Shown here piece by piece: positions 40,896 to 41,061 of a stretch of DNA of 64,000 nucleotides (positions are counted from its first letter, which is position 1; the number at the start of each line of letters is the position of its first letter). The position numbers were made by a program, and so were the translations under genes. The notes under the pieces are model-generated. The model had not been told where the DNA came from, did not search any database, and was given only the letters and a program-made list of their open reading frames with translations. Source of the stretch: Thermovirgaceae bacterium (GTDB lineage: Bacteria; Synergistota; Synergistia; Synergistales; Thermovirgaceae); contig JAXGNU010000004.1 of the NCBI GenBank assembly GCA_040767805.1, positions 1 through 64,000 of the forward strand, in the 5' to 3' direction.

Positions 40896-41061
40896 CCGTG
40901 AATCGTAAGTCGTAAATCGTGAGTCGTAAGTACCGTGAATCGTGAATCAGAAGAACCGTGAATCGTGAGTCGTAAATCGTGGGTCGAAAACCGTGAATCG
41001 CAAGGTCAAATTCATAGGCTGATCGTTTTGCTTTTACGTTTTGCTCTTACGATTCACGACT
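40896..41061. repeat. Heptamer tandem repeat array (CGTRART) with inverted copies; continues at 42368-42388 beyond the IS
   Basis: More than 10 CGTGAAT/CGTAAGT/CGTAAAT/CGTGAGT units, then reverse-complement units TTACGATTCACGACT. Confidence 0.85.

Follow-up and report, generated by a model that had tools for sequence, protein, structure and literature searches.

Which property of a host sequence directs a mobile element into the space between the only 23S and the only 5S rRNA genes of a genome assembly? This question is raised by the window analysed here, the whole stretch of 64,000 nucleotides that forms positions 1-64000 of contig C4 (C4:1-64000) in the assembly of a digester bacterium (G000; 29 contigs, 1,654,126 bases, estimated completeness 80.6%). 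Its rRNA operon lies on the minus strand and comprises, according to Rfam, a 16S gene (45747-47352), a 23S gene (42415-45601; RF02541), and a 5S gene (40767-40882; RF00001, 89.1 bits), the latter two being the sole assembled genes of their kind. The 23S-5S spacer holds a period-7 repeat array and one long plus-strand ORF. Along the window, the 5S gene is followed by the heptamer array (40897-41061), an IS110-family insertion sequence (41062-42369), the 23S gene, and the 16S gene, and the element is antisense to the operon. The gap between the element and the end-pairing stem of the 23S rRNA amounts to 25 nt. A second 16S gene, 99.8% identical, is located on contig C2 (C2:7300-9393) and is succeeded not by a 23S gene but by a pair of tRNA-like genes and a hairpin resembling a terminator. 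That a 1.3-kb antisense element is tolerated between the sole assembled 23S and 5S genes also poses the question of 5S production. An earlier note on this DNA had proposed that the element is programmed against the heptamer repeat and that a perfect target stands empty nearby. Both proposals are followed up below with the genome, its relatives, and contigs from the runs X1, X4, X15, and X17.

The element comprises 1308 bp on the plus strand (41062-42369) and is intact. Its limits are set by two full copies in the assembly, C4:41062-42369 and C6:71619-72926, which are 100% identical over 1308 bp (BLAST) and whose identity ends at the same bases on each side. A CT dinucleotide precedes the left end (41060-41061) and another closes the right end (42368-42369). 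The C6 copy is bordered likewise, and this CT core at both junctions is not accompanied by any other target duplication. The left flank of the C4 copy ends with ...TTACGATTCACGACT and the right flank begins with TACGATTAACGATTAACGG; at the junctions these flanks, and the occupied site restored from them, read exactly as the earlier note had written them. A non-coding left end of 236 nt lies upstream of the recombinase gene (41298-42314, plus strand) and a right end of 55 nt follows it. The encoded protein of 338 aa contains the DEDD RuvC-like and Tnp domains (Pfam matches PF01548, 2.4e-25, and PF02371, 1.5e-24). Its residues 5-327 align with the solved recombinases of IS621 (8wt6, E 2.5e-41, phmmer) and ISCro4 (9t56, E 1.5e-42), and its GID, EAT, KTDxxDA, and SG motifs align with D11, E60, D102, D105, and S241-G242 of IS621. 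D11, E60, D102, D105, and S241 are named as catalytic residues in the part of the IS621 literature used here (PMC11208158). By every sequence feature that can be tested, the element is an intact IS110-group insertion sequence of the IS621 type.

Besides the full copies, BLAST detected a 331-bp 3' fragment with four differences from them (C2:126000-126330). It meets heptamer DNA at element base 978, with no CT at the joint, and this region (C2:126000-126345) is an older copy truncated by another route. All three genome copies, the two full ones and the fragment, are flanked by heptamer units. Copies outside the repeats would have spoken against the idea that the repeat is the target, and neither the C6 copy nor the C2 fragment is such a copy. 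The C6 copy lies inside a short run of four heptamer units and not in a long hairpin. Among 261 genomes of the order, the element found matches in three (E<=1e-10), G000 included, and of these only the related genome G001 has a near-identical sequence besides G000, in the form of a left-end stump.

The left end of the element contains the segments expected of a guide RNA. In an unbiased scan of its 236 nt, the restored target and the joined element ends matched four guide segments, whose order and strand sense agree with those of IS621, the definitions of guide order, guide sense, and a CT core in each pairing being those in the portion of the IS621 report used here (PMC11208160). The left target guide, GATTTACGACT (41128-41138, plus strand), was found by the match scan in the same sense as the left target plus CT. 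The right target guide, TCGTAAG (41156-41162, plus strand), starts 17 nt further downstream in the opposite sense and is the reverse complement of CTTACGA, that is, of CT plus TACGA. Together the guides of this loop specify GATTTACGA-CT-TACGA, and at the sites occupied by both copies the left guide is identical at 10 of 11 and the right guide at 7 of 7 positions. The left donor guide, GACGGTAT (41191-41198, plus strand), is an exact 8-nt match in the sense of the last right-end bases before CT and continues with GC where the donor has CT, and the right donor guide, TACGAG (41224-41229, plus strand), is at 6/6 positions the reverse complement of CT plus CGTA, the start of the left end. When the left end was mononucleotide-shuffled, the target guide pair was reproduced in none and the donor guide pair in one of 20,000 shuffles. 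All four segments lie within the left end, which is the placement typical of the IS110 group; the IS1111 group has them in the right end.

A bridge RNA of about 170 nt is predicted for this region (41101-41270, plus strand; fold z-score -4.09), with a closing stem, a target-binding loop module, and a donor-binding loop module. With the four segments held open, the constrained fold yields two stem-loops with large internal loops inside the closing stem. The minimum-energy fold does not leave the target guides open and pairs them with each other, and it does the same in all five relatives. Since such self-pairing of the guides occurs in five of five relatives, with 4-7 pairs and a cost of 6.5-11.1 kcal/mol, the idea that it is peculiar to elements with a tandem-repeat target was rejected. 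No Rfam family matches the left end, and an exact search of the genome contigs for the 5' stem of the bridge RNA returned a single, unrelated match. Upstream of the predicted RNA, a -10-like hexamer, TATATT (41064-41069, plus strand), would form a promoter with a -35-like hexamer of the right end, TTGACG (42351-42356, plus strand), only across the junction of a circular form. Joining the ends in silico gives TTGACG, 15 nt, and TATATT, with 10 of 12 consensus matches and a spacer below the usual 16-18. No consensus promoter was found in the integrated copy, and the promoter at the circle junction is regarded as putative.

Taken together, these features point to an IS621-like, bridge-RNA-guided, and recently active element that is aimed at junctions in heptamer hairpins, a reading to which we assign a probability of roughly 85%, recent activity included. 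The left end would encode the bridge RNA with its two internal loops, presumably expressed from the element. The target loop would base-pair with the two strands of a site of 14-16 bp, TT(T/C)ACGA-CT-TACGA, which corresponds to the junction of two heptamer units whose left unit ends with ACT where the common unit ends with ATT. The donor loop would pair with the joined ends of the element itself (...ACGGTAT-CT-CGTA...), and the DEDD/Ser recombinase would probably exchange strands at the CT core. Such an exchange would leave the element flanked by CT on both sides without further duplication. The host target would be the intergenic hairpins of this lineage, whose arms are inverted tandem arrays of the CGTRAAT type and one of which fills the 23S-5S spacer. 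In a palindrome of this kind, a target in one arm would imply a near-copy on the other strand of the other arm.

The 5S-proximal arm of the spacer hairpin (40897-40977, plus strand) consists of tandem CGTRART heptamers with strict in-phase arrays of five and three units, and Tandem Repeats Finder (TRF) reports a period of 7, the unit CGTGAAT, and 14.3 copies for 40897-41000. The 23S-proximal arm is interrupted by the element. On its right side, 42370-42387 (plus strand; TRF period 7, unit ACGATTA, 42371-42387) carries the right target half of the occupied site together with the arm's final heptamer units. After in silico excision of the element, folding of the spacer gives a single long hairpin (-66.9 kcal/mol for the plus strand, -58.6 kcal/mol in the sense of the rRNA). 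If a strict array is defined as at least three in-phase units with at most one mismatch to CGTRAAT, the assembly contains 28 such arrays in 20 loci, which cover 861 of its 1,654,126 bases and are surrounded by looser period-7 DNA. The array arms occur as inverted pairs in intergenic DNA. Three consecutive units, (CGTRAAT)3, are present in 10 of 41 related genomes if G000 is included, while the reversed control was found in 0 of 41. Besides G000, these comprise nine of the 18 other genomes from the family of G000 and none of the 22 from other families. The heptamer array family is older than the element. We take the host target to be a member of a heptamer-repeat hairpin class, called STRR-like, with which it shares an intergenic location, inverted arms made up of period-7 arrays, and a lineage-specific unit. 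A link between heptamer-repeat hairpins and an IS110 guide was not found in the literature searched.

Conservation of the CGTRAAT heptamer across phyla was considered and rejected: (CGTRAAT)3 had at least 124 matches, and so did the reversed control. G000 also contains a cassette in which a PF05635 gene ('23S rRNA intervening sequence protein') is situated between inverted CGTGAAT arrays (C14:13348-13728). This gene (127 aa, 6.9e-38; within locus L300, C14:13152-14003), the sole one of its kind in the assembly, is bracketed by CGGAAAC heptamer arrays as well. Beside the cross-phylum arrays, tblastn searches of the 400-bp flanks detected PF05635 genes at 0 of 80 loci. The idea of a conserved hairpin centre was rejected, since the central 60 nt of the spacer hairpin recur in G000 only once and weakly (C2, 39 nt, 85%, E 0.06), though G001 and the sister species G004 have similar ones. 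A AAGGTCAAATTC-like motif is found 20-70 nt before the element in the left flanks of the C4 copy (window 40989-41048), the G001 stump, and the close relative L096 (positions 1-60); it is inverted at the C2 fragment (C2:126338-126376) and absent at the C6 copy. The motif might mark a sub-family of hairpins that is preferred by the element.

How selective the proposed guide would be can be read from the distribution of its target. The left half of the occupied site lies in the 23S-proximal arm (41046-41061, plus strand) and combines GATTCACGA with the CT core at 41060-41061; it is identical to the left guide at 10/11 positions. The empty site that the earlier note had described at 40903-40918 of the minus strand is indeed present: it reads GATTTACGACTTACGA, matches the guide-predicted target at 16 of 16 positions, and is the only exact occurrence of this 16-mer in the assembly. 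On both strands, the 16-mer has one match with no mismatch, five with at most one, 29 with at most two, and 74 with at most three. The last set includes the DNA at 41128-41138, so that the segment encoding the left target guide itself belongs to the repeat family. A second empty candidate site, at 40963-40978 on the minus strand, has one mismatch, a C instead of T directly after the CT core. When the spacer is folded, the pairing partner of the occupied site (41046-41061 plus 42370-42376) is 40908-40930, a stretch that overlaps the perfect empty site. This empty site belongs to the other arm of that hairpin and is displaced by one unit from the position that mirrors the occupied one. The perfect empty site is thus present because the hairpin is palindromic, and it is not an independent coincidence. 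The earlier note had also ranked it above the occupied site. By letter count this is correct (16/16 versus 15/16), but the ranking means little because the sole difference would be a wobble pair: both full copies occupy the same site and differ from the guide at one position, where the guide has T and the target C, and the resulting U opposite a bottom-strand G would presumably be tolerated.

Throughout the genome, the unit junctions read ACGATTYACG in 76 and ACGACTYACG in nine cases. After removal of both full copies in silico, the sequence TTYACGA-CT-TACGA has three exact matches, two of them occupied and one empty, four matches with at most one mismatch, and 12 with at most two. Only three exact sites exist because 76 of the 85 unit junctions read TT and lack the CT core. 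One base at the core, CT versus TT, narrows about 85 unit junctions to three usable sites, and a repeat harbour can therefore be narrow. The view that the repeat serves as a multicopy safe harbour holds insofar as junctions of the heptamer family are targeted, but with three exact sites only it is overstated.

In relatives of the element, altered guides go along with altered flanks. Two close relatives (L096 and L097) were found on metagenome contigs. L096 is 87.5% identical to the element over 1318 nt and lies in a heptamer-like array. Its bridge RNA differs from that of G000 at 15 of 170 positions, and five of these differences fall on the 18 target-guide positions (3/11 of the left and 2/7 of the right guide) and none on the 22 donor-guide positions, the left donor guide being invariant. 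The L096 guides specify ...CACGT-CT-CACGC and its flanks read ...TCCGT-CT-CACGT. The flank bases adjacent to the core have shifted in step with the guides, from A to T before CT and from T to C after it. The fit between the L096 guides and their own flanks is imperfect (left 7/11, right 6/7), and the left guide matches the left flank of G000 better (9/11) than its own (7/11). Smaller changes occur in two further elements. A41133G in the left target guide is shared by a variant in run X17 and the G001 stump, and the left flank in G001 carries the matching G (...TTGCGACT); in the X17 variant, the right target guide is changed as well (A41160G). The elements of G000, X17, G001, and L096 thereby represent a small natural series of reprogrammed target loops. 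L097 is represented by its 3' part only, which is 97.6% identical. Its right flank, TACACCTTTGAG..., is not a heptamer array; it contains an 18-19-bp direct repeat and is followed by AT-rich DNA. This flank (TACAC...) matches the right guide in three of the five bases after CT, and the left end of L097, with the guides, lies off the contig. L097 may be an off-target or differently guided copy.

Three more distant elements from the same bacterial order (L003, L004, and L005) encode recombinases with 47, 45, and 43% identity, respectively, to the G000 protein. Their RNAs align column for column with the G000 RNA, and the guide columns hold unrelated letters that fit the flanks of the respective element, a non-heptamer repeat. 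Cognate pairs agree at 6-7 of 7 positions for the right guide versus 2-3 of 7 for non-cognate pairs, and at 9 of 11 versus 5-6 of 11 for the left guide. In L004 and L005, the right donor guide ATGAG is accompanied by a left end that starts with CATA. These elements represent a second IS110 lineage of 1335 bp in the same order (L004 in G012, L005 in G004, L003 in G032), which is aimed at ...CTCTGTGTCC-CT-CTGTGG..., a sequence recurring in the flanks. In the five-sequence alignment, a small sample whose structure was derived from one of the five, 80.2% of the cells are paired, compared to 29-58% with the partners slid. Eight pairs have changed on both sides, the co-variation score exceeds those of all 500 shuffles, and RNAalifold gives the same stems. 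A covariance model of the G000 and L096 RNAs (R1) yielded no matches in 80 genome loci with default filters. With the filters off, the matches in 25 loci were weak, short hairpins on both strands (best E 0.0093) with no credible distant relative among them, and the model was dropped because it was too sequence-specific.

Site choice might instead be set mainly by the hairpin or cruciform structure of the DNA, the match to the RNA being secondary or incidental. Every copy targeted to heptamers lies in or beside a hairpin arm, and for ISPpu10 a target-encoded stem-loop adds specificity according to the part of a preprint used here (10.64898/2026.03.19.712850). A choice led by structure is nevertheless unlikely, as most arrays are empty and insertions are confined to those few CT-bearing junctions which agree with the guide, the guides and flanks change together across relatives, and the C6 copy sits in its short four-unit run with no long hairpin.

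Insertion directed by a bridge RNA also accords with the empty states of the locus. In the sister species G004 (locus L011), the order deoC-5S-hairpin-23S is kept and the element is absent. One 257-nt contig of run X17 proceeds from 41059 to 42371 without the element and reads ATTAACG at the site, where G000 with the element excised reads ACTTACG. The empty spacer in G004 and the uninterrupted X17 contig indicate that the heptamer hairpin was present in the spacer before the element inserted. In G004, a second heptamer hairpin directly follows deoC (L011 950-1110, compared with window 40678-40766) and is missing from G000, and the 5S-23S spacer of G002 contains a different heptamer of the CAACAGT type. 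Judged from these sequences, heptamer hairpins are gained and lost between sister species.

The perfect target could be empty because transposition has stopped and the element is now fixed and inactive. As the assembly contains just two full copies and a single fragment, and as 259-nt contigs of runs X1 and X4 read through the perfect site without interruption, such an endpoint is conceivable, but the complete identity of the full copies over 1308 bp, the open frame and intact catalytic motifs, the contigs of X4 in which further left-flank sequences are joined to the left end (loose ends at 41060), and the X17 variant with both target guides changed render it improbable. Contigs cannot reveal rare events, and within this limit no insertion at 40903-40918 was seen in those of the runs. 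The same limit applies to joints that would support an inversion, of which the contigs contained none. The suggestion that the opposed arms of the array permit local inversions has gained no support from these data. The sole opposite-strand joint, 40981/41061 in one contig of run X15, was discarded as a candidate because it has the depth of a contig that belongs to a related, G004-like organism, in which the hairpin after deoC is arranged in a different orientation. The depth ratios between element and flank in these contigs do not represent copy numbers.

A guided and still mobile element might affect its target repeats beyond simple insertion. Many units on both strands match the target by half, and the DNA of the left guide is itself a copy of the target, so that the element could in principle drive hairpin turnover. 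A role of the recombinase in unit changes, deletions, and inversions of heptamer hairpins, the rRNA spacer included, with the G001 stump as a footprint of recombination mediated by guide DNA, is a doubtful extension of the main reading. The stump (L002, G001:C14 195-302, minus strand) consists of bases 1-77 of the left end, stops exactly at the CT within the left-guide-coding DNA, and continues into host arm sequence (TACGGCCCTTACGAT...). Both end-points of the deletion in G001 coincide with CT cores or with repeat homology of 8-11 bp. The stump could be recombinase-mediated or have arisen by deletion through short homology shared by the guide-coding DNA and the adjacent array. The orthologous locus in G000 contains neither the hairpin nor the element and therefore provides no pre-insertion sequence for the stump locus. 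That the guide-like segment of the left end is merely a captured host heptamer unit without a guide function is highly improbable, for although the sequence of 41128-41138 itself belongs to the repeat family and the G001 element is cut off exactly after the left-guide segment, a second segment of opposite sense follows 17 nt downstream where the right target guide is expected, donor guides occupy the corresponding places of the second loop, and relatives aimed at a different repeat have unrelated guides in the same columns of the alignment.

The programming of this IS110 element against a heptamer-repeat junction, as the earlier note had it, is accordingly borne out by guides that fit the flanks of both full copies and by the location of all three genome copies, L096, and the G001 stump in arrays. 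Likewise, the genome-wide search for the target, with two of three exact sites occupied, agrees with that proposal, and the analogy drawn to the targeting of REP elements by IS621 is fair. With IS621 of Escherichia coli, as described in the portions of the reports used here (PMC11208160, PMC11208158), the element shares the two protein domains, the aligned catalytic residues, a predicted guide RNA in the left end, and a multicopy host repeat as the target. The two predicted loops, in which the left guide has the sense of the target or donor and the right guide the opposite sense, with CT in each pairing, would also correspond, as would the putative -35 hexamer in the right end and the putative -10 hexamer in the left end. 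Differences exist at several levels. The protein falls into a class of about 35% identity (relatives in Klebsiella and Enterobacter, 35%), the apparent guide match is longer by sequence comparison (9+2+5 versus 7+2+2 in IS621), and the predicted fold has a closing stem around both loops. Finally, the apparent target here is a tandem-heptamer junction in a hairpin arm and that of IS621 a REP element.

A second point of comparison are the REP-targeting IS110 elements ISPpu9 and ISPpu10 of Pseudomonas putida (for ISPpu10, 10.64898/2026.03.19.712850), which resemble the present element in inserting throughout into copies of one conserved intergenic repeat that forms a stem-loop. Their target is a GC-rich stem-loop of the REP type, whereas the element described here uses AT-richer tandem units of seven bases and among them only the rare CT-bearing junction. 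The heptamer target, a period-7 tandem array within a long arm of a hairpin, is not of the REP type, and it is REP-like in being a multicopy intergenic palindrome. The targeting of such palindromes by IS110 elements is known from the portions used here of the work on IS621 (PMC11208160) and ISPpu10 (10.64898/2026.03.19.712850). Within the literature searched, no paper was found that links IS110 elements with heptanucleotide or tandem-repeat targets; the 'tandem repeat' mentioned in one paper on IS110 bridge RNAs denotes a duplication of the cargo and not a target. Novelty lies in the type of repeat that is targeted, the arm of a tandem-heptamer hairpin, and in its place in the 23S-5S spacer, while the behaviour of the element is ordinary for its family. 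The heptamer hairpins add a natural target class to those of bridge-RNA elements, which previously were mostly REP-type repeats, transposon ends, and integron sites.
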